A DNA stretch of 64,000 nucleotides from Chloroflexota bacterium (GCA_009838915.1 VXQT01000013.1:315161-379160), one strand, 5' to 3'. Counted from the stretch's first letter, positions 25,658 through 38,340 are shown. Numbers and translations: made by a program. Notes: a model not told the origin generated them from the letters alone.

Positions 25658-27135
25658 GCGCCTGCTTCGTACCAGCCGGCCGTGAACAACAAGCCCTCGT
25701 GACGCACGACCCAGGTGTGCTTCTGCTCCTGCTCGCCGCTGTCGGGATTGAGAAACACGTAGCTCACCCAACCGCGATCTTCAATAGCAATGAACTCCTC
25801 GCGGAAGCGACGACCCGTGACATCGGGCCCGCCGTCGAGCAAGTTCTCTCCAAGCGGCAAGTAGGGATGCGCCAGCCGGGTGCCGTCGAGCTCGTAGATG
25901 CTCACGTACCACTCGCCGTCCACGCTGTCGGGCGAGTTGTGATACGCAATCACCGCTTCGCGACCATCGGCCTCGTAACGGTCGATCGCGTCCTGTACCA
26001 GAGCCCTGGCATAAGCGGCCGGATCTTGCTCTGCGAGATCGTAGTTGCGGTCATACCAGCCCGAGCCGAACAGCAGGTCTCCCTGCCGCACGATCCAACT
26101 GTGTTTGCGCTGGTACTGCAGCTCGGCGTCGGGATTGGGGAAGACGTACGAAATCCAGCCGCTCGTTTCGATCGACAGTGTGTCCGCCGTGTAGTCGTAG
26201 CCCGTCACGTCAACGCCGGTGCCGTGCAGGTTGCTGCCCAACCAGCCCGGCCGGTCGGCGCGAGCGCCGTTGACCAGGCGGGTGCCGTTCACATTGTGGA
26301 TGAACAGGTACCACTGCCCGTCGATGCTCTGTGGTGAGTTGTAGTACTCGAATGTCGCGTCCCGCCCGAGCACGCGGTACATCTCGAGCGCCCGCTCAAC
26401 GTAGGACTGGGTGAAGGCGCCCAGTGCGTGCGTCTTCGAAGGCCCATCCTCGTACCAACCGGAGCCAAAGATCAGGCCGTCGTGGCGCACAACCCAAGAG
26501 TGCTTAATCTCCGCCTGTCCGGTGGCCGGGTTGTCGAACTGGTAGTCGACCCAGCCGCCATTGCTCCTGGCAGCTGCCACCACGACTCGTCCTGCCGGGT
26601 ACCCGTCGGGTCCGTTGATGTCGTCGTTGTGCATACCAACCAGATCGGGATTTCGGTTGGCAATGGTCACTCCACTCTCATCGATGATGAAGACATACCA
26701 TTGCCCCTCAACGCTCTCAGGTGAGTTGTAGTAGGCCAGGGTCGCTTCACGTCCGTCGCGATCGAACCGAGCGATGGCTTGCTCGACGAACCACTGCGTG
26801 TACGCGGCGGGATCCGAGATGCGGGGAGCCGTTTCCGGGACACTGACGGCAATCGGGTCGCTGGCGTACCACTCGCCGGGCTCCGCGGGAACCGGCAGGA
26901 ATCGGGCCTCAGGCGTGTGAGTCATCCAATCGCTGCCGACGACCCTGGACTGCGCCCGCACTTCGACGCGACCGACGTCCGTCTCGCGCGCCTGCACGCG
27001 CACCTCGACTTCGCCGTCTCGGTCATTGTCGGAAGCCACGAACTCGAGCGGAAGCACACCGCTGAACACAACCACGGCGGACAGTGCAGCAACAAGCAAC
27101 GCCCCGGCAATCAGGGCACGTATCTGACGGGACAT
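25636..27135 (-). CDS. Secreted protein with three tandem single-Cache (sCache_2-like) domains
   Basis: N-terminal signal/TM (MSRQIRALIAGALLVAALSAVVV). Three ~125-aa repeats each read ...YYNSP(E/Q/D)SV(E/D)GQWY(V/L)FI...G(T/V)...(A/V)N...GGW(V/I)(D/S)Y(Q/V)F.NP....(K/H)(S/T)WVVRH(D/E/G)(D/G)L(I/L)FGSGWY. The repeats are also visible at the nucleotide level. Confidence 0.7.
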   Translation of the reverse strand: MSRQIRALIAGALLVAALSAVVVFSGVLPLEFVASDNDRDGEVEVRVQARETDVGRVEVRAQSRVVGSDWMTHTPEARFLPVPAEPGEWYASDPIAVSVPETAPRISDPAAYTQWFVEQAIARFDRDGREATLAYYNSPESVEGQWYVFIIDESGVTIANRNPDLVGMHNDDINGPDGYPAGRVVVAAARSNGGWVDYQFDNPATGQAEIKHSWVVRHDGLIFGSGWYEDGPSKTHALGAFTQSYVERALEMYRVLGRDATFEYYNSPQSIDGQWYLFIHNVNGTRLVNGARADRPGWLGSNLHGTGVDVTGYDYTADTLSIETSGWISYVFPNPDAELQYQRKHSWIVRQGDLLFGSGWYDRNYDLAEQDPAAYARALVQDAIDRYEADGREAVIAYHNSPDSVDGEWYVSIYELDGTRLAHPYLPLGENLLDGGPDVTGRRFREEFIAIEDRGWVSYVFLNPDSGEQEQKHTWVVRHEGLLFTAGWYEAGAYATPES

Positions 27136-27525: not shown

Positions 27526-27600
27526 CCCCCCGTAGCTCAGGGGATAGAGCACCGGTTTCCTAAACCGCGCGCGGAGGTTCGAATCCTCCCGGGGGGACCA
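27526..27600 (+). tRNA. tRNA-Arg (anticodon CCT)
   Basis: Cloverleaf by hand: acceptor CCCCCCG/CGGGGGG, D-arm GCTC..GAGC, anticodon loop TTCCTAA, T-arm GGAGG-TTCGAAT-CCTCC, encoded CCA. C1:G72 is unusual; coordinates +/-2. Confidence 0.75.
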
Positions 27601-28930: not shown

Positions 28931-30250
28931 TCAACCTGCCAACGCGTCCTCAACTCTCAACGCCTGACCCAGCAGAGTTTCGTCGTGGCCAAAGCGGCCT
29001 ACGAGGGAGAGACCGAGCGGGAGGCCGTCAACGTCGCCGAACGGCAGGTTGATCACCGGCATCCCGGCGTGGGTCCAGGGCAGGTTCATTCGTGGATCAC
29101 CGGTCGAGCCCAGACCATGCGGCGCCGGACCGACCGCTGACGGCGCCAGCCAGACGTCGATGCCGGCCCGATCCATGCGCTCGTGCAGCCGCTGGCGCAG
29201 CGCGATACGACTGGCCCGTCCGGTTTCGGCAGTGGCTGGGGAGACGGCCAATCCTGTCTCGAAAAACTCCGCGCTCTGGGGACGGAACATCGCCCCGTAC
29301 TTGGCGTAACGCTCGCGATGCGTCTCTGTGAACTCGAAGACGGTCAGATCGCTGTGTCGTTTGTTGATGTCAGCGATGTCGTGCAAGGTCATCACGTCTG
29401 CAATGTCGATGCCTGCGTCGCTCAGTAGCTCCGTCGCCTGGGCCAGGGCTGCGCGGACTTCCTGCCCTGCTTGTTCCAGAAATGGCCCGGCCGGTATCCC
29501 GATTCTTGGAGTCGTCGCCTCCGCGTCTTCACCGTTTCTCCAACCCAACAGCAGGGCGGAAGCGGCCAGCGTCGCGTCCGTGACCGAGTTGACGAAGAAG
29601 CCGATCGTGTCGACTGACGGAGAGAAGTACAGCGTCCCACCGGTCGGAATCCGGTCATACGAAGGCTTGAAGCCGACCGCGCCGCAAAACGACGCAGGAC
29701 GAATGACCGAGCCGACAGTCTGTGAACCGACCGCCAACGGCGCGATTCCGGCCGCGACTGCCGCGGCCGAGCCGCTGCTCGAACCGCCGGGCGTGTGCTC
29801 CCGATCGTGGGGATTGGCTGTCGCGCCGGAGGCGAAGTAGGCGAACTCGGTGGTCACGGCCTTGCCCAGGACGAGCGCGCCCGTCTCTTTGAGCCGTGCG
29901 ACCACATCGGCTTCGCGTCCGCTGAAGGACTCCGGCGGCACCGCCGAACCGGCACGTGTCGGCATCCGGTCGACATTGAAGATGTCCTTGACTGCAACCA
30001 TCGCGCCGAAGAGCGGCGGCCGATCCTCCGGCGACGGCCAACGTTCCATGAGCGTCGCCGCCTCCGCCGAGAGCCGTTCCCGTTGCCGCGGGTCGGGCAG
30101 CATCGCGCGGACGAGCGGATTGACTTCATCCAGCCGATCGAGCGACTGCGCAATCAGGTCCTGCAATGAGAGCGCGCCGGATCGAGCCGCGGCGACCTGC
30201 TTGCTCAGGGAGAGCGGTTGCACCAGGTTGAGCGTCGTTGCGTCCGGCAT
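28931..30250 (-). CDS. Amidase (amidase-signature family)
   Basis: GGSSSGSAAAVAAG amidase signature with KD...S catalytic context. Start at ATG 30250 (MPDATT, GGAG ribosome-binding site) rather than the track's TTG at 30265. Confidence 0.85.
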   Translation of the reverse strand: MPDATTLNLVQPLSLSKQVAAARSGALSLQDLIAQSLDRLDEVNPLVRAMLPDPRQRERLSAEAATLMERWPSPEDRPPLFGAMVAVKDIFNVDRMPTRAGSAVPPESFSGREADVVARLKETGALVLGKAVTTEFAYFASGATANPHDREHTPGGSSSGSAAAVAAGIAPLAVGSQTVGSVIRPASFCGAVGFKPSYDRIPTGGTLYFSPSVDTIGFFVNSVTDATLAASALLLGWRNGEDAEATTPRIGIPAGPFLEQAGQEVRAALAQATELLSDAGIDIADVMTLHDIADINKRHSDLTVFEFTETHRERYAKYGAMFRPQSAEFFETGLAVSPATAETGRASRIALRQRLHERMDRAGIDVWLAPSAVGPAPHGLGSTGDPRMNLPWTHAGMPVINLPFGDVDGLPLGLSLVGRFGHDETLLGQALRVEDALAG

Positions 30251-30268: not shown

Positions 30269-30321
30269 ATGCCCCCCTCTGCCTTCGGCATCTCCCCCCG
30301 CTGCGCGGGGGGAGAGAGGGG
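30269..30321. repeat. GC-rich double-hairpin intergenic repeat element, copy A (terminator-like)
   Basis: ATGCCCCCCTCTGCCTTCGGCAT + CTCCCCCCGC-TGCG-GCGGGGGGAG + AGAGGGG. Near-identical reverse-complement copy at 37668-37718. Lies between the DinB-like gene and the amidase on the minus strand. Confidence 0.7.
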
Positions 30322-30323
30322 CG

Positions 30324-30854
30324 TTAGAAGCCGAGGCCTTCCTTGCCCTGCATTGAGCGGCCGACGTTGATCTGACCCAGGTGGTTGTTCGAGTGGTTGA
30401 TGATGACCTGACCGATGATCTCCCACTTGGGAAGCTCGCCCTGGGGCACGATGCGGGTGATCGAGTTCAGGTACTCGGGAGTCATCTCAGCGATGCGCGG
30501 GACAATCACATCGGCCACGTCGTTGAGATAGCCGGCAATGGTTGCGCCGTCAGGGAACACCCAGCTTGAGACTTCCTCGTAGCTGGTACCGGTGCCCTGG
30601 TCGACCTTGGGCAGTCCCCACTCCTCGAACAGGTTCTTCGACATCCAGATCGGCTGTTCGCGCTCGAAGGCGAAGTGAATCAGGTTGTCGGCGGTGCGGG
30701 CGATGTGCCAGGCCTCGAAGCCGATGCAGTTCTGACCCTCGAATGTGCAGAAGTGGACCTCGTCCTGCGAAAGGTCCTCCATCGACTGCGCGGTCCAGCG
30801 CAGCACGCGGTCGGTGAACTTGGCCAGCGCGGCCGCGAGATCGTTGTCTGCCAT
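30324..30854 (-). CDS. DinB/DinB_2-family four-helix-bundle protein
   Basis: 176 aa with ...WHIARTADNLIHFA... and ...INHSNNHLGQI... DinB-like His motifs. GGAGG ribosome-binding site. Confidence 0.6.
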   Translation of the reverse strand: MADNDLAAALAKFTDRVLRWTAQSMEDLSQDEVHFCTFEGQNCIGFEAWHIARTADNLIHFAFEREQPIWMSKNLFEEWGLPKVDQGTGTSYEEVSSWVFPDGATIAGYLNDVADVIVPRIAEMTPEYLNSITRIVPQGELPKWEIIGQVIINHSNNHLGQINVGRSMQGKEGLGF

Positions 30855-33536: not shown

Positions 33537-33613
33537 AGGGGTGTAGCTCAGTTTGGCAGAGCAACGGTCTCCAAAACCGTAGGTCGCGGGTTCGAGTCCT
33601 GCCACCCCTGCCA
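33537..33613 (+). tRNA. tRNA-Trp (anticodon CCA)
   Basis: Acceptor AGGGGTG/CACCCCT, anticodon loop CTCCAAA, T-arm GCGGG-TTCGAGT-CCTGC, encoded CCA; coordinates +/-2. Confidence 0.85.
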
Positions 33614-33631
33614 GAGCAACCCACCAGCCAT

Positions 33632-33719
33632 GCCGAGGTGGTGGAACTGGTAGACACGCAGCGTTGAGGGCGCTGTGCCCATTGCGGGCGTGGAGGTTCG
33701 AGTCCTCTCCTCGGCACCA
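33632..33719 (+). tRNA. tRNA-Leu (anticodon GAG)
   Basis: Acceptor GCCGAGG/CCTCGGC, anticodon loop TTGAGGG, long variable arm, encoded CCA; coordinates +/-2. Confidence 0.85.
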
Positions 33720-33769
33720 ACACTCGGACTACCACCGATTGCCGCCCGGTGGTTACAATGTCCCCACCA

Positions 33770-33844
33770 GCGGAAGTGGCGCAGCGGTAGCGCGTCTCCT
33801 TGCCAAGGAGAAGGTCGAGGGTTCGAATCCCTTCTTCCGCTCCA
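33770..33844 (+). tRNA. tRNA-Gly (anticodon GCC)
   Basis: Acceptor GCGGAAG/CTTCCGC, anticodon loop TTGCCAA, T-arm GAGGG-TTCGAAT-CCCTT, encoded CCA; coordinates +/-2. Confidence 0.85.
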
Positions 33845-33865
33845 CAACAACGCACCTGCGCACCA

Positions 33866-33939
<74 letters not shown>

Positions 33940-35826: not shown

Positions 35827-37620
35827 TTGGAGAACTACGGTATGACCGAGTCCAGAATCGACACTCCCGGAGTCGTGATCCCGATCTGGGACGGCGAACT
35901 CGACGACTTCGAGACTGAAGCCACCGCCTTCCGCGAGCAACAGCGCGAAGAGGTCGAGTTTATGCTCTACCGCCTGCGACAGGGAGTCTACGGACAGCGC
36001 CAGCCAGACGTGCACATGAACCGGATCAAGTTGCCTATGGGCGGTGTCACGTCCGATCAGCTCGACGGACTCGCGGAGGTCTGCGAGACCTTCGCGCCGC
36101 TGCGCAAGGGACACATCACCACCCGCCAGAACATCCAGGTCCACTTCGTACCGCTCGACCAGATGCCGGACATGCTCCGGGTCCTGGGCAAGGTCGGCCT
36201 GTCTTCGCGTGAGGCCTGCGGCAACACCGTACGCAACGTCACCGCCGACCCCTGGGCCGGCATCTCCGAGGACGAGGTCTTCGACCCTACGCCCTACGCC
36301 GGCGCGTTCGTCCGCTACTGGGTGCGCAACTCGATCACCCAGCTCCTGCCGCGCAAGTTCAAGGTCTACTTCACCGGCCGCGAGGCCGACTCCGCCATCG
36401 CCGCCATCCACGATCTCGCCTTCTTCTCACAGGTCCGTGTGATCGACGGCAAAGAGGTCCGCGGCTTCCGCGTCATGGTCGGCGGCGGCCTTTCAACGAT
36501 GCCCAAGGAAGCCGTCACGCTGACCGACTTCGTGCCGATGTCCGACTTCCTTACCCTCTCGGAGGCCGTGATCCGCATCTTCAACGCGGCCGACGAGCTG
36601 CGCAAGAACATCCTCAAGGCCCGCCTCAAGTTCCTCGTCCACCGCGTCGGCGAAGAGGCCTTCCGCGAGATGGTCGACGAAGAACTGAAGAAGGGCTGGT
36701 CAGCCGAGACGCCGCCGCTTGAGGAGTTGCTCTACATCGACGACGAGGATTCCGACGAGCGCGAGATTGCGGTCGAGCTGCCCTCGCCCAACGGCGATGC
36801 GGCGCGATTCGAGCAGTTCCTCGCCACCAACGTCCGCCCACAGGTTCAGGACGGCTACTCCGCGGTCGAGGCTTCGATCGATCAGGGCGACCTGACGCCG
36901 GAACAGTTCCGCGGCCTGGCCGAGATCCTGCGCAAGTATGGTCGCGAGCGAGCACGAACCACTCCGCAGCAGAACGTGGTCCTGCGCTGGATTCCCAACC
37001 AGGCTGTCTACGCGGTCTGGAAGGAACTCGATGCCCTCGGCATGGGCGCTCCAGACGCCCAGGAAATCGAAGACGTCGTCTCCTGCCCCGGCACCGATAG
37101 TTGCAAGCTCGGCATCACCTCGTCCATGGGTCTCAACCGCGCCGTGCAGGAGCGCGTCCGTGAGATGGCGATTGACGATCCGCTGACCCGCAAGATGCGT
37201 ATCCACATGAGCGGCTGCCCCAACAGTTGCGGCCAGCACCACATCGCCGATATCGGCTTCCACGGCGCCGCGATCAAGGTCGGCAACCGTCAGATTCCCG
37301 CCTATCACATGTTCGTCGCCGGCACCTACCGCACCGAGGAGATGCGGCTGGGCACGCTGGTACCGAAGGTCCGCATCCCGGCCAAGCGCGTTCCCGACGC
37401 CGTCGAGCGGGTGATCGACCTGTATCACTCCGACCGCCAGGACGGTCAAGAGCTGTTCAGCAGTTGGGTGGACCGGGTCGGCCTCAGTCCGATCCAGGAC
37501 ACGCTCACCGATCTCACGCTGCCGCCCGAGTTCTCCGCCGACACCCTGCCGATGTTTATCGACTGGGATCGCCAGGACATCTACATTCTCCAGCGCGGCG
37601 AGGGCGAGTGCGCCGTCTAA
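35827..37620 (+). CDS. sir: Ferredoxin-dependent sulfite/nitrite reductase hemoprotein (siroheme-[4Fe-4S])
   Basis: Cys cluster motifs CPGTDSCKLGITSS and MSGCPNSCGQHH. 597 aa with a two-fold NirA/Sir architecture. Coordinates are taken from the ORF track; my hand-count puts the TTG one base earlier. Confidence 0.88.
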   Translation: MENYGMTESRIDTPGVVIPIWDGELDDFETEATAFREQQREEVEFMLYRLRQGVYGQRQPDVHMNRIKLPMGGVTSDQLDGLAEVCETFAPLRKGHITTRQNIQVHFVPLDQMPDMLRVLGKVGLSSREACGNTVRNVTADPWAGISEDEVFDPTPYAGAFVRYWVRNSITQLLPRKFKVYFTGREADSAIAAIHDLAFFSQVRVIDGKEVRGFRVMVGGGLSTMPKEAVTLTDFVPMSDFLTLSEAVIRIFNAADELRKNILKARLKFLVHRVGEEAFREMVDEELKKGWSAETPPLEELLYIDDEDSDEREIAVELPSPNGDAARFEQFLATNVRPQVQDGYSAVEASIDQGDLTPEQFRGLAEILRKYGRERARTTPQQNVVLRWIPNQAVYAVWKELDALGMGAPDAQEIEDVVSCPGTDSCKLGITSSMGLNRAVQERVREMAIDDPLTRKMRIHMSGCPNSCGQHHIADIGFHGAAIKVGNRQIPAYHMFVAGTYRTEEMRLGTLVPKVRIPAKRVPDAVERVIDLYHSDRQDGQELFSSWVDRVGLSPIQDTLTDLTLPPEFSADTLPMFIDWDRQDIYILQRGEGECAV

Positions 37621-37667
37621 AGCCTCCATCTCCACCCGCTCTGCGGGGAACTCTGCATCCGCTCACT

Positions 37668-37718
37668 CCCCTCTCCCCCCGCTCCGCGGGGGGAGATGCC
37701 GAAGGCAGAGGGGGGCAT
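37668..37718. repeat. GC-rich double-hairpin intergenic repeat element, copy B (terminator-like; reverse complement of copy A)
   Basis: CCCCTCT + CCCCCCGC-TCCG-GCGGGGGGAG + ATGCCGAAGGCAGAGGGGGGCAT. A weaker hairpin CCCGCTCTGCGGG sits just upstream. Lies between the sir stop and the trmH-like start. Confidence 0.7.
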
Positions 37719-37740: not shown

Positions 37741-38340
37741 GTGATCACCGAACGCCGCCTTGCTCGTATGCGCGAAGTGCTGGAGCGCCGCCACGATGAC
37801 CTGGTTGTGGTGCTCGAGAACATCCATGACGCCCACAACGCCTCCGCCATTCTGCGCAGTTGCGACGCCTTCGGCGTCGGCCGGGTCGCGCTGGTCTACA
37901 CCAACCAGGTCTTCCCCGAGATTTCAGGCGGCGTCGCGGCCAAGGTCCCGAAATGGCTGCAGATCGACCGCTTTGCGTCGGCCGAGGACTGCGTCTCTGC
38001 TCTGCACGACGAGGGAATCAAGGTCTACGCCACCGAACTCACGGACGACGCACACGACTATCTCGGCGTCGACTTCGGCGGACCCTGCGCCATCGTCCTC
38101 GGAAACGAGCACGCAGGCTGCTCAGCGGAGATGGTCGCACTGGCGGACGGCGCGGTCATCGTCCCGATGGCCGGCTTCGTACAGTCGCTGAACGTCTCAG
38201 TGGCAGCGGCGGTGATTCTGGCCGAGATCGCACGTCAACGACGAGAGTTTCAGCCTGGCTGGAGCGAACGCAAGGCGGCTCAACTGCAGCGCTGGATTGA
38301 GCGCGAGTCGTCGGGGGCTGACTCTCCGGGTGTCGTGTAG
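37741..38340 (+). CDS. trmH: SpoU/TrmH-class tRNA/rRNA 2'-O-methyltransferase
   Basis: ...LVVVLENIHDAHNASAILRSCDAFGV..., ...IVLGNEHAGCS..., ...VQSLNVSVAAAVILAEI... SpoU motifs. GTG start. Confidence 0.85.
   Translation: MITERRLARMREVLERRHDDLVVVLENIHDAHNASAILRSCDAFGVGRVALVYTNQVFPEISGGVAAKVPKWLQIDRFASAEDCVSALHDEGIKVYATELTDDAHDYLGVDFGGPCAIVLGNEHAGCSAEMVALADGAVIVPMAGFVQSLNVSVAAAVILAEIARQRREFQPGWSERKAAQLQRWIERESSGADSPGVV

Follow-up and report, generated by a model that had tools for sequence, protein, structure and literature searches.

Class II (purine-motif) intrastrand triplex repeats are known from Escherichia coli under three successive names, BoxC, then PIT, then TMECO (Holder et al. 2015, PMC4666352), in reports that run from Bergler 1992 through Hoyne & Maher 2000 and 2002 to Holder et al. 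2015. There are 23 TMECO copies in K-12; they are intergenic, often arranged as inverted pairs combining two sub-types, and are associated with locally raised genomic variability (PMC4666352). The repeat forms a stable triplex in vitro, as judged by CD and NMR, and was undetected in vivo (PMC4666352), and PIT/BoxC elements reportedly act neither as promoters nor as terminators (Hoyne & Maher 2002, as cited in PMC4666352). The published ITxF search admitted loops of 1-6 nt only (PMC4666352), so the variant described below, whose second loop is a mini-hairpin, would be missing from the published catalogue.

The DNA analysed here (the window) is a 64,000-nt stretch from a Chloroflexota bacterium. 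Its largest inverted repeat, 30269-30319 / 37668-37718, is 51 nt long and 94% complementary, in agreement with an original prediction that 30269-30321 and 37668-37718 are near-identical reverse complements. The two copies, A (minus strand) and B (plus strand), are inverted with 7348 nt between them and share an identical 33-nt core, GCGGGGGGAGATGCCGAAGGCAGAGGGGGGCAT, that is found nowhere else in the window at up to 3 mismatches. None of 100 shuffles contained a match to this core, so the earlier view that the match is too long for chance holds. The 46-nt sequence of the module on its G-rich strand is TCTCCCCCCGCTCCGCGGGGGGAGATGCCGAAGGCAGAGGGGGG. The parts of the copies and their neighbours are as follows.

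30271..30321, minus strand: copy A, complete module (triplex-motif finder flags 30273-30314, minus strand)
30321-30315, minus strand: copy A, outer C-tract CCCCTCT
30315-30305, minus strand: copy A, pyrimidine stem Y, TCTCCCCCCGC
30304-30302, minus strand: copy A, loop 1, GCA
30301-30291, minus strand: copy A, purine stem R1, GCGGGGGGAGA
30290-30281, minus strand: copy A, mini-hairpin T-GCC-GAA-GGC
30280-30272, minus strand: copy A, mirror purine tract R2, AGAGGGGGG
37668..37716, plus strand: copy B, complete module (triplex-motif finder flags 37673-37714, plus strand)
37668-37673, plus strand: copy B, outer C-tract CCCCTC
37672-37682, plus strand: copy B, pyrimidine stem Y, TCTCCCCCCGC
37683-37685, plus strand: copy B, loop 1, TCC
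37686-37696, plus strand: copy B, purine stem R1, GCGGGGGGAGA
37697-37706, plus strand: copy B, mini-hairpin T-GCC-GAA-GGC
37707-37715, plus strand: copy B, mirror purine tract R2, AGAGGGGGG
37626..37648, plus strand: truncated third copy, CCATCTCCACCCGCTCTGCGGGG (C-tract and top of hairpin 1 only)
30324..30854, minus strand: DinB_2-family gene, stop 30324-30326 (context, outside the element)
28931..30250, minus strand: amidase gene, ATG at 30250, Shine-Dalgarno sequence GGAG at 30263-30260 (context, outside the element)
35827..37620, plus strand: sulfite-reductase-like gene (sir, as named in the original prediction), stop 37618-37620 (context, outside the element)
37741..38340, plus strand: SpoU/TrmH-like methyltransferase gene, named from its translation (context, outside the element)

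Copy A sits in the 73-nt spacer between the DinB_2 and amidase genes, beginning 3 nt past the DinB_2 stop and ending about 20 nt before the amidase ATG, while copy B lies between the sir stop and the SpoU/TrmH-like start, about 25 nt from the latter. The genes flanking each copy are co-directional (minus strand for A, plus strand for B) and both copies read the same way, so that, as had been predicted, they have one orientation relative to the upstream gene (DinB_2 on the minus strand, sir on the plus strand). The truncated copy lies directly upstream of copy B and agrees with the 5' half of the module at 20 of 23 positions, a score that none of 1000 shuffles reaches; a 'weaker hairpin', CCCGCTCTGCGGG, noted earlier before copy B is indeed related, and is the 5' half of this fragment. 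Copy A is identical in six assemblies of one sponge-associated (Ircinia) MAG species. A search for the exact sequence of the TrmH-like protein returned no record. The best-supported reading of the two copies and the fragment is that they are passengers in two intercistronic spacers, co-transcribed with the flanking genes.

Elsewhere in the window, four tRNA genes (Trp-CCA, Leu-GAG, Gly-GCC, Cys-GCA) are clustered at 33537-33939, between copies A and B, and a tRNA-Arg-CCT is found at 27526-27600. The region 25887-26755 contains a direct repeat of about 80 nt in three diverged copies (64-74% identity, spaced at about 390-400 nt), probably a repeated protein domain in a minus-strand gene. Rfam 15, in gathering and E-value modes, returns only tRNAs for the window, only junk below 16 bits around copy A, and nothing at 18 other diverse loci of the family. 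A tRNA- or rRNA-derived insertion, HDV-like or hammerhead ribozymes, a k-turn and a switch that sequesters the Shine-Dalgarno sequence were rejected, as neither a defining motif nor an Rfam signal was found for any of them.

Both window copies carry three blocks on one strand, Y, the complementary R1 and the mirror-image R2, in the class II (C-G-G) order. By direct reading these give nine perfect triads (A.A-T, G.G-C, A.A-T, then six G.G-C), that is, stems of 9 nt free of mismatches in both copies, within the 6-15 nt and at most 1 mismatch of the class. A motif finder set to 7-nt stems and at most 1 mismatch makes 4 strand calls in the whole window against 0.7 in shuffles. The opposite strands (30292-30322, plus, and 37666-37694, minus) also satisfy the rule, making a 'double' motif; on that strand of Chloroflexi copies, the sequence complementary to the upstream C-tract serves as a mirror purine tract with a short loop. 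This R2 tract, the defining feature of the module, was absent from the earlier description, which can be refined in other ways too. Its first hairpin is present, with a loop of 3 nt (GCA or TCC) rather than 4 and a stem of 11 bp counting the flanking T-A pair. Its second, 'ATGCC...GGCAT', gives way on comparison across the family to a 4-bp mini-hairpin, TGCC-GAA-GGCA, the trailing CAT being unconserved.

The resemblance to BoxC/PIT/TMECO is thus one of design: a C-rich stem, a short loop, a complementary G-rich stem, a second loop and an antiparallel mirror G-rich stem, with stems of about 9 nt and no U-tract, in a multi-copy, mostly intergenic repeat that frequently forms inverted pairs of two sub-types. 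The pairing is a property of the dispersed family; the window itself holds two single copies and a fragment. The sequence family is a different one. The TMECO consensus, CCCTCNCCC N3-6 GGGNGAGGG N3 GGGNGAGGG, does not match the window copies, the tracts of the module being TCTCCCCCC / GGGGGGAGA / AGAGGGGGG in place of CCCTCNCCC / GGGNGAGGG / GGGNGAGGG. The loops, too, depart from the short, unstructured kind (1-6 nt in ITxF): loop 1 has 3 nt closed by two extra G-C pairs, and the second loop, only 3 nt in TMECO, is a 10-nt mini-hairpin in the window copies and up to 15 nt in relatives, capped by GNA. Three further differences concern behaviour: the TMECO pattern is reported in proteobacterial genomes, whereas the module occurs in Chloroflexota, Bacteroidota, cyanobacteria, CPR and Firmicutes; TMECO is reported as always intergenic, whereas some module copies lie in frame within genes; and E. 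coli TMECO has no sense bias, in contrast to Chloroflexi copies of the module. We consider it probable, though well short of certain, that the repeat is an architectural variant of the BoxC/PIT/TMECO type of potential intrastrand triplex and behaves as selfish or structural DNA. What appears to be new, on the best-supported reading, is the variant with a mini-hairpin loop and a taxonomic range far wider than reported for the TMECO pattern.

That range became apparent on searching for the module pattern. At least 112 blocks of 8 kb in a genome collection match GGGAGATGCCNNNGGCAGAGGG; among the matches listed, Dehalococcoidia/Chloroflexota MAGs account for 71 blocks, many of these MAGs being complete chromosomes of 3.0-3.6 Mb with up to 13 or more positive blocks each, and other phyla, with at least 25 genomes, for 41, these family loci not being phylogenetically independent. 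Carriers outside Chloroflexota include Flavobacteriaceae (among them the isolates Aequorivita nionensis and Sinomicrobium pectinilyticum), Saprospiraceae, Lentimicrobiaceae and Chitinophagales, as well as cyanobacteria, Paceibacterota, Saccharibacteria, Dialister, Christensenellaceae, Cloacimonas and Chitinivibrionales. In metagenomes, a second pattern, CTCCCCN{2,8}GGGGAGATGCCNNNGGCA, matched at least 120 contigs, mostly of 30-45% GC, with 126 hits among the matches listed. Six viral contigs (IMG/VR) have a match; BLAST of plasmids and phages gave chance-level matches only, and a literature search by module sequence string found nothing. Copies A, B and the truncated copy are therefore members of a short non-coding DNA repeat family that is very large and crosses phyla. 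The expectation of a dispersed, REP-like repeat is borne out, with hundreds of copies, mostly just downstream of stop codons, and the spread across many genomes and phyla contradicts the local-duplication relic that the original prediction had named as its alternative.

The same evidence bears on whether copies A and B could mark the two ends of a 7.4-kb composite mobile element, as its terminal inverted repeats, or remain from a local inverted duplication. Their inverted arrangement and spacing would suit such an origin, but the interval holds housekeeping genes and the four-tRNA cluster, the locus is identical in the six assemblies, and the same module occurs at hundreds of unrelated loci; we regard this explanation as very improbable indeed.

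Comparison across the family, with counts made by our own scripts in place of a MAFFT alignment, which left the variable-loop 5' arm unaligned, defines the anatomy of the module. In AT-rich genomes the unit is sharp-edged and 34-40 nt long: TC(T/G)CCCC, a loop of 2-9 nt, GGGGAGA, TGCC-GNA-GGCA and GAGGGG. On the G-rich strand the order is thus Y TCTCCCCCC, loop, R1 GGGGGGAGA, the GNA-capped mini-hairpin and R2 AGAGGGGGG, which mirrors R1. Variable loops and complementary extensions of the stem (GC/GC in Chloroflexi, AAAUA/UAUUU in viral contigs) speak for hairpin 1, and the stems of the mini-hairpin show compensatory change (TGCC/GGCA, TGTCAC/GTGACA, TGTCCC/GGGACA, TGTCGC/GCGACA, TGCCGC/GCGGCA, TGCCC/GGGCA). 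About 90% of copies have GNA as the loop of this mini-hairpin. Triloops of the GNA kind are characteristic of stable DNA hairpins, and C-GNA-G mini-hairpins are reportedly, after Hirao et al., exceptionally stable in DNA.

The 3' purine tract R2 is an integral part of the module, because it is kept in more than 90% of the hits listed from a metagenome scan that did not require it: GAGGGG comes next in 92 of the 126 hits listed and GAAGGG in 17 of 126, the other hits being nearly all one-base variants. R2 always mirrors R1, and the relation recurs in the subfamilies GGGAAAG/GAAAGGG, GGGGAAG/GAAGGGG and GGGAAGG/GGAAGG, each with a matching pyrimidine tract, the symmetry being partly by construction because the search patterns fixed part of both tracts. 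Covariation is also seen in the run lengths of the C-tract and the two successive G-tracts (Spearman 0.53-0.67, p<1e-9). When a minimal copy is folded by Watson-Crick rules, R2 stays unpaired.

The three tracts suggest how the element may work. When the G-rich strand becomes single-stranded, in replication, in repair or as the non-template strand in transcription, Y and R1 would form a hairpin; R2 could then fold back antiparallel to R1 to give the nine G.G-C and A.A-T reverse-Hoogsteen triads, the GNA-capped mini-hairpin acting as a compact turn between R1 and R2. Triplexes of this kind may form in vivo and, by analogy with TMECO, might impede polymerases or affect genome stability. Two observations allow other pairings. 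Loop 1 begins with TT or TC in 70% of copies, which makes an alternative Y:R2 helix possible in place of a triplex. Against a triplex, too, pairing between R2 and the upstream C-tract of Chloroflexi copies can produce a conventional three-way junction, whether as RNA or as DNA, and these copies therefore need no triplex. In mRNA, the window copies would be expected to fold as a very stable three-way hairpin and not to act as intrinsic terminators.

This leads to the question of a role at the level of the transcript, in line with the terminator-like element of the original prediction and analogous to REP in malEFG: a stable three-way junction or double hairpin serving as a terminator that lacks a U-tract, as a stabiliser of mRNA 3' ends or as a processing site. 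Orientation, counted from GC3-filtered ORF calls, is in part as that idea would have it. Both window copies are sense to their flanking genes, and among single copies in unidirectional spacers of high-GC Chloroflexi genomes 29 are sense and 10 antisense (binomial p=0.003), with 14 further single copies between convergent genes and only 5 between divergent genes. Copies typically start within a few tens of nt (about 0-100) of the upstream stop. Copy A folds as RNA at -45 kcal/mol (z=-3.5), mismatches in the mini-hairpin, read on the G-rich strand, are more often of the G.T type (about 7) than A.C (2), and one metallophosphoesterase spacer keeps the module in four species (L061, L082, L108, L118) with compensatory change in hairpin 1. 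The sense bias and the mismatch excess fit a transcript-level role as well.

Other counts do not follow. Single copies in low-GC genomes are unbiased (8 sense, 11 antisense), doublets divide 9 to 9, and intragenic copies are mostly antisense. The predicted orientation rule accordingly holds as a tendency in Chloroflexi and is not a property of the family, in which many copies are inverted doublets, lie between convergent genes or are intragenic; where the bias exists, it could instead reflect a preference for a replication strand or for the non-template strand. The RNA fold of copy B is no better than shuffles (z=-1.3), whereas DNA folds of both strands are strong, with z about -3.6 to -4.1. 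The conserved 3' purine tract stays unpaired in minimal copies. Like an intrinsic (Rho-independent) terminator, the module is a GC-rich hairpin just after a stop codon. The absence of a U-tract, remarked on from the start, is confirmed at both copies, whose tails are CAUCGAUUGG and CAUACCGAGG, and a terminator scan calls no site at either. The start of the next gene, which has a Shine-Dalgarno sequence of its own, follows after 20-25 nt. Unlike intrinsic terminators, too, the module keeps its sequence across phyla, occurs in both orientations and also inside genes, and in gut-bacterial mosaic units is followed by a separate hairpin with a U-tract. With PIT/BoxC also reported to lack terminator activity (Hoyne & Maher 2002, as cited in PMC4666352), a terminator-like role at the window copies is not upheld, and we consider an RNA-level function in any of its forms unlikely, if still deserving some weight, as the main explanation of the family.

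On our preferred reading, a potential intrastrand triplex behaving as selfish or structural DNA, the repeat gathers just after stop codons, builds inverted doublets and larger mosaics, and occasionally persists in frame in genes. Dehalococcoidia copies frequently form inverted doublets of two sub-types, a TGCC-type module with one of TGTCAC or TGTCCC type. Sponge Dehalococcoidia also carry an abundant palindromic composite of about 190 nt (L024 5700-6000 and about 18 similar loci, by alignment), which reads: terminal inverted repeat GGAGACCTTTG, TGCC-type module, a conserved spacer with CCTATCTGGTC, an inverted GTCAC-type module and terminal inverted repeat CAAAGGTCTCC. This composite is MITE/REPIN-like. 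The bare module has no terminal inverted repeat beyond its own palindrome, and no target-site duplication is evident in AT-rich flanks. Its distribution points to mobility; in a search for empty sites at the metallophosphoesterase junction, all four orthologous loci were filled.

Larger arrangements occur as well. A Dehalococcoidia chromosome has a tandem duplication of a 367-nt unit that contains an inverted module doublet (L102 2859-3310). In gut Firmicutes and Bacteroidales bins the module lies inside dispersed 170-190-nt units, in which several GNA-loop hairpins are followed at the end by a terminator-like hairpin with a U-tract (L081 7000-7500; L244 100-900 and 4000-4200; L127 4055-4260 and 7882-8100). 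Near-identical gut units are common to Dialister and a 'Paludibacteraceae' bin, which indicates either HGT or mis-binning. A TnpB/IscB omega-RNA or other guide RNA was considered for these units and rejected, the neighbouring genes being unrelated (an SLH protein, an aldehyde dehydrogenase).

Such arrangements recall REP, BIME and REPIN elements, and one could suppose that the modules are classical REP/REPIN sequences mobilised by a RAYT (an IS200/IS605-like Y1 transposase) through single-stranded hairpin intermediates. The likeness is considerable: GC-rich palindromes of 35-50 nt in high copy number downstream of genes, spaced inverted doublets, larger mosaics bearing terminal inverted repeats in Dehalococcoidia, and GNA triloops of the kind seen in stable DNA hairpins. 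Occasional intragenic copies likewise have a counterpart in intragenic REPs, but the GTAG or CGTC tag by which REPs are recognised is missing from both ends of the module (TCTCCCC... and ...GAGGGG) (PMC3733652). Moreover, about 840 kb of genome loci show no transposase-like ORF recurring beside copies, the core of the module is nearly identical across phyla although a REP family is as a rule confined to one lineage, and the mirror purine tract is foreign to REP. Membership in the classical REP/REPIN class is therefore improbable.

Persistence within genes can be followed at several loci. In AT-rich genomes the module is in frame in Pfam-verified genes for MnmE (L034 2453-2474), MetRS (L013 7869-7890, L091 5091-5112), IMPDH (L021 900-921), an AcrB-family RND pump (L097 1807-1828) and an MTS-type N6-methyltransferase, in the last directly after the NPPF motif (L041 749-770). 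Chloroflexi have in-frame copies within a prolyl oligopeptidase (L086 2879-2900) and a prophage terminase (L073 4497-4518). A QueA fragment (L015) also carries the module, its Pfam domain match beginning downstream of the insert. By inspection, the module core has no stop codon in any of its six frames, and the peptides encoded are PSAFGISP, PPLPSASPP or GEMPxAEG. The insert in MnmE replaces a variable loop with a net gain of about 3 residues; it is old, as it is shared in decaying form, and with no clean boundaries, by orthologues down to 82% identity. Rickettsia palindromic elements (RPE) likewise have members in frame inside functional genes, but they are 100-150 nt long and confined to one genus, whereas the module is 35-50 nt long, unrelated in sequence, mainly intergenic and present in many taxa.

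Which enzyme might move the module is suggested by its neighbours in other phyla. At six metagenome loci a gene for a DUF559 protein (PF04480, a Vsr-like PD-(D/E)XK nuclease) lies beside or between modules. Seven further homologues were chosen by protein similarity alone (L245, L246, L252, L255, L257, L258, L259), from Bacteroidota isolates, Acidobacteriota-labelled and other MAGs and one record labelled Agrobacterium tumefaciens. Triplex-type motifs occur within 200 nt of six of the seven genes, and of the seventh likewise by eye; the seven loci together hold 11 motifs in 21.9 kb against 0.1 in shuffles. The motifs often stand on both sides of the gene in inverted orientation and commonly overlap its stop codon, and L259 has outer inverted repeats, GCCGCGGAGCC/GGCTCCGCGG, as well. 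DUF559 genes with flanking motifs, and the E. coli gene of the same family, are at the following positions.

L244 218-622: DUF559 gene with flanking motifs
L229 14132-14506: DUF559 gene with flanking motifs
L258 1201-1560: DUF559 gene with flanking motifs
L259 1201-1554: DUF559 gene with flanking motifs
L246 1501-1875: DUF559 gene with flanking motifs
L256, NC_000913.3 1351407-1351760: E. coli ycjD (DUF559)

DUF559 genes thus adjoin motifs of the present kind and, in E. coli, a TMECO: one lies 168 nt downstream of ycjD, in the fabI (envM) region, which is reportedly where BoxC was first described. Synteny breaks off about 40 nt before this TMECO in some 38% of the complete E. coli genomes, O157:H7 and ST131 among them. 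The loci concerned are L256 2163 (NC_000913.3 about 1351162) and L260; in O157:H7 a TetR/RND efflux island follows fabI instead. The TMECO report makes no mention of ycjD or of any endonuclease (Holder, PMC4666352). Neither the window nor about 720 kb of Chloroflexi loci contains a DUF559 gene, and no other neighbouring gene recurs at Chloroflexi module loci. The DUF559 nuclease is therefore a candidate mobilising enzyme, seen beside such motifs in other phyla and not in the Chloroflexi loci searched. A broader proposal would unite the hairpin-loop modules, BoxC/TMECO and hairpin-plus-G-tract motifs in one superfamily partnered by the DUF559 nuclease, in the manner of REP and RAYT but built around another protein fold. 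A structure-specific nuclease, encoded by a gene that itself stands between inverted copies, would recognise or nick the strand in its folded triplex or hairpin form and so drive copying of the repeats. We put this forward tentatively, as a doubtful proposal; if true, it would explain the near-identical cores across phyla and the genomic instability at TMECO loci.

BoxC/PIT/TMECO repeats have been known since 1992, with no function and no mechanism of spread generally accepted for them; the named TMECO pattern was described in Proteobacteria. The module presented here is a sister design with a mini-hairpin as second loop. It is plentiful in the Chloroflexi symbionts of sponges and also occurs, its core hardly changed, in Bacteroidota, cyanobacteria, CPR and Firmicutes. 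Because the three tracts co-vary, because the module persists inside essential genes and because published searches limited to loops of at most 6 nt would miss it, the triplex-type design looks selected rather than a curiosity of E. coli. The modules would also be strong obstacles to polymerases and to assembly, and useful markers in MAGs. Finally, the recurrent DUF559 neighbourhood, including ycjD by what is presumably the original BoxC site, offers a concrete candidate for the long-missing protein partner of these repeats.
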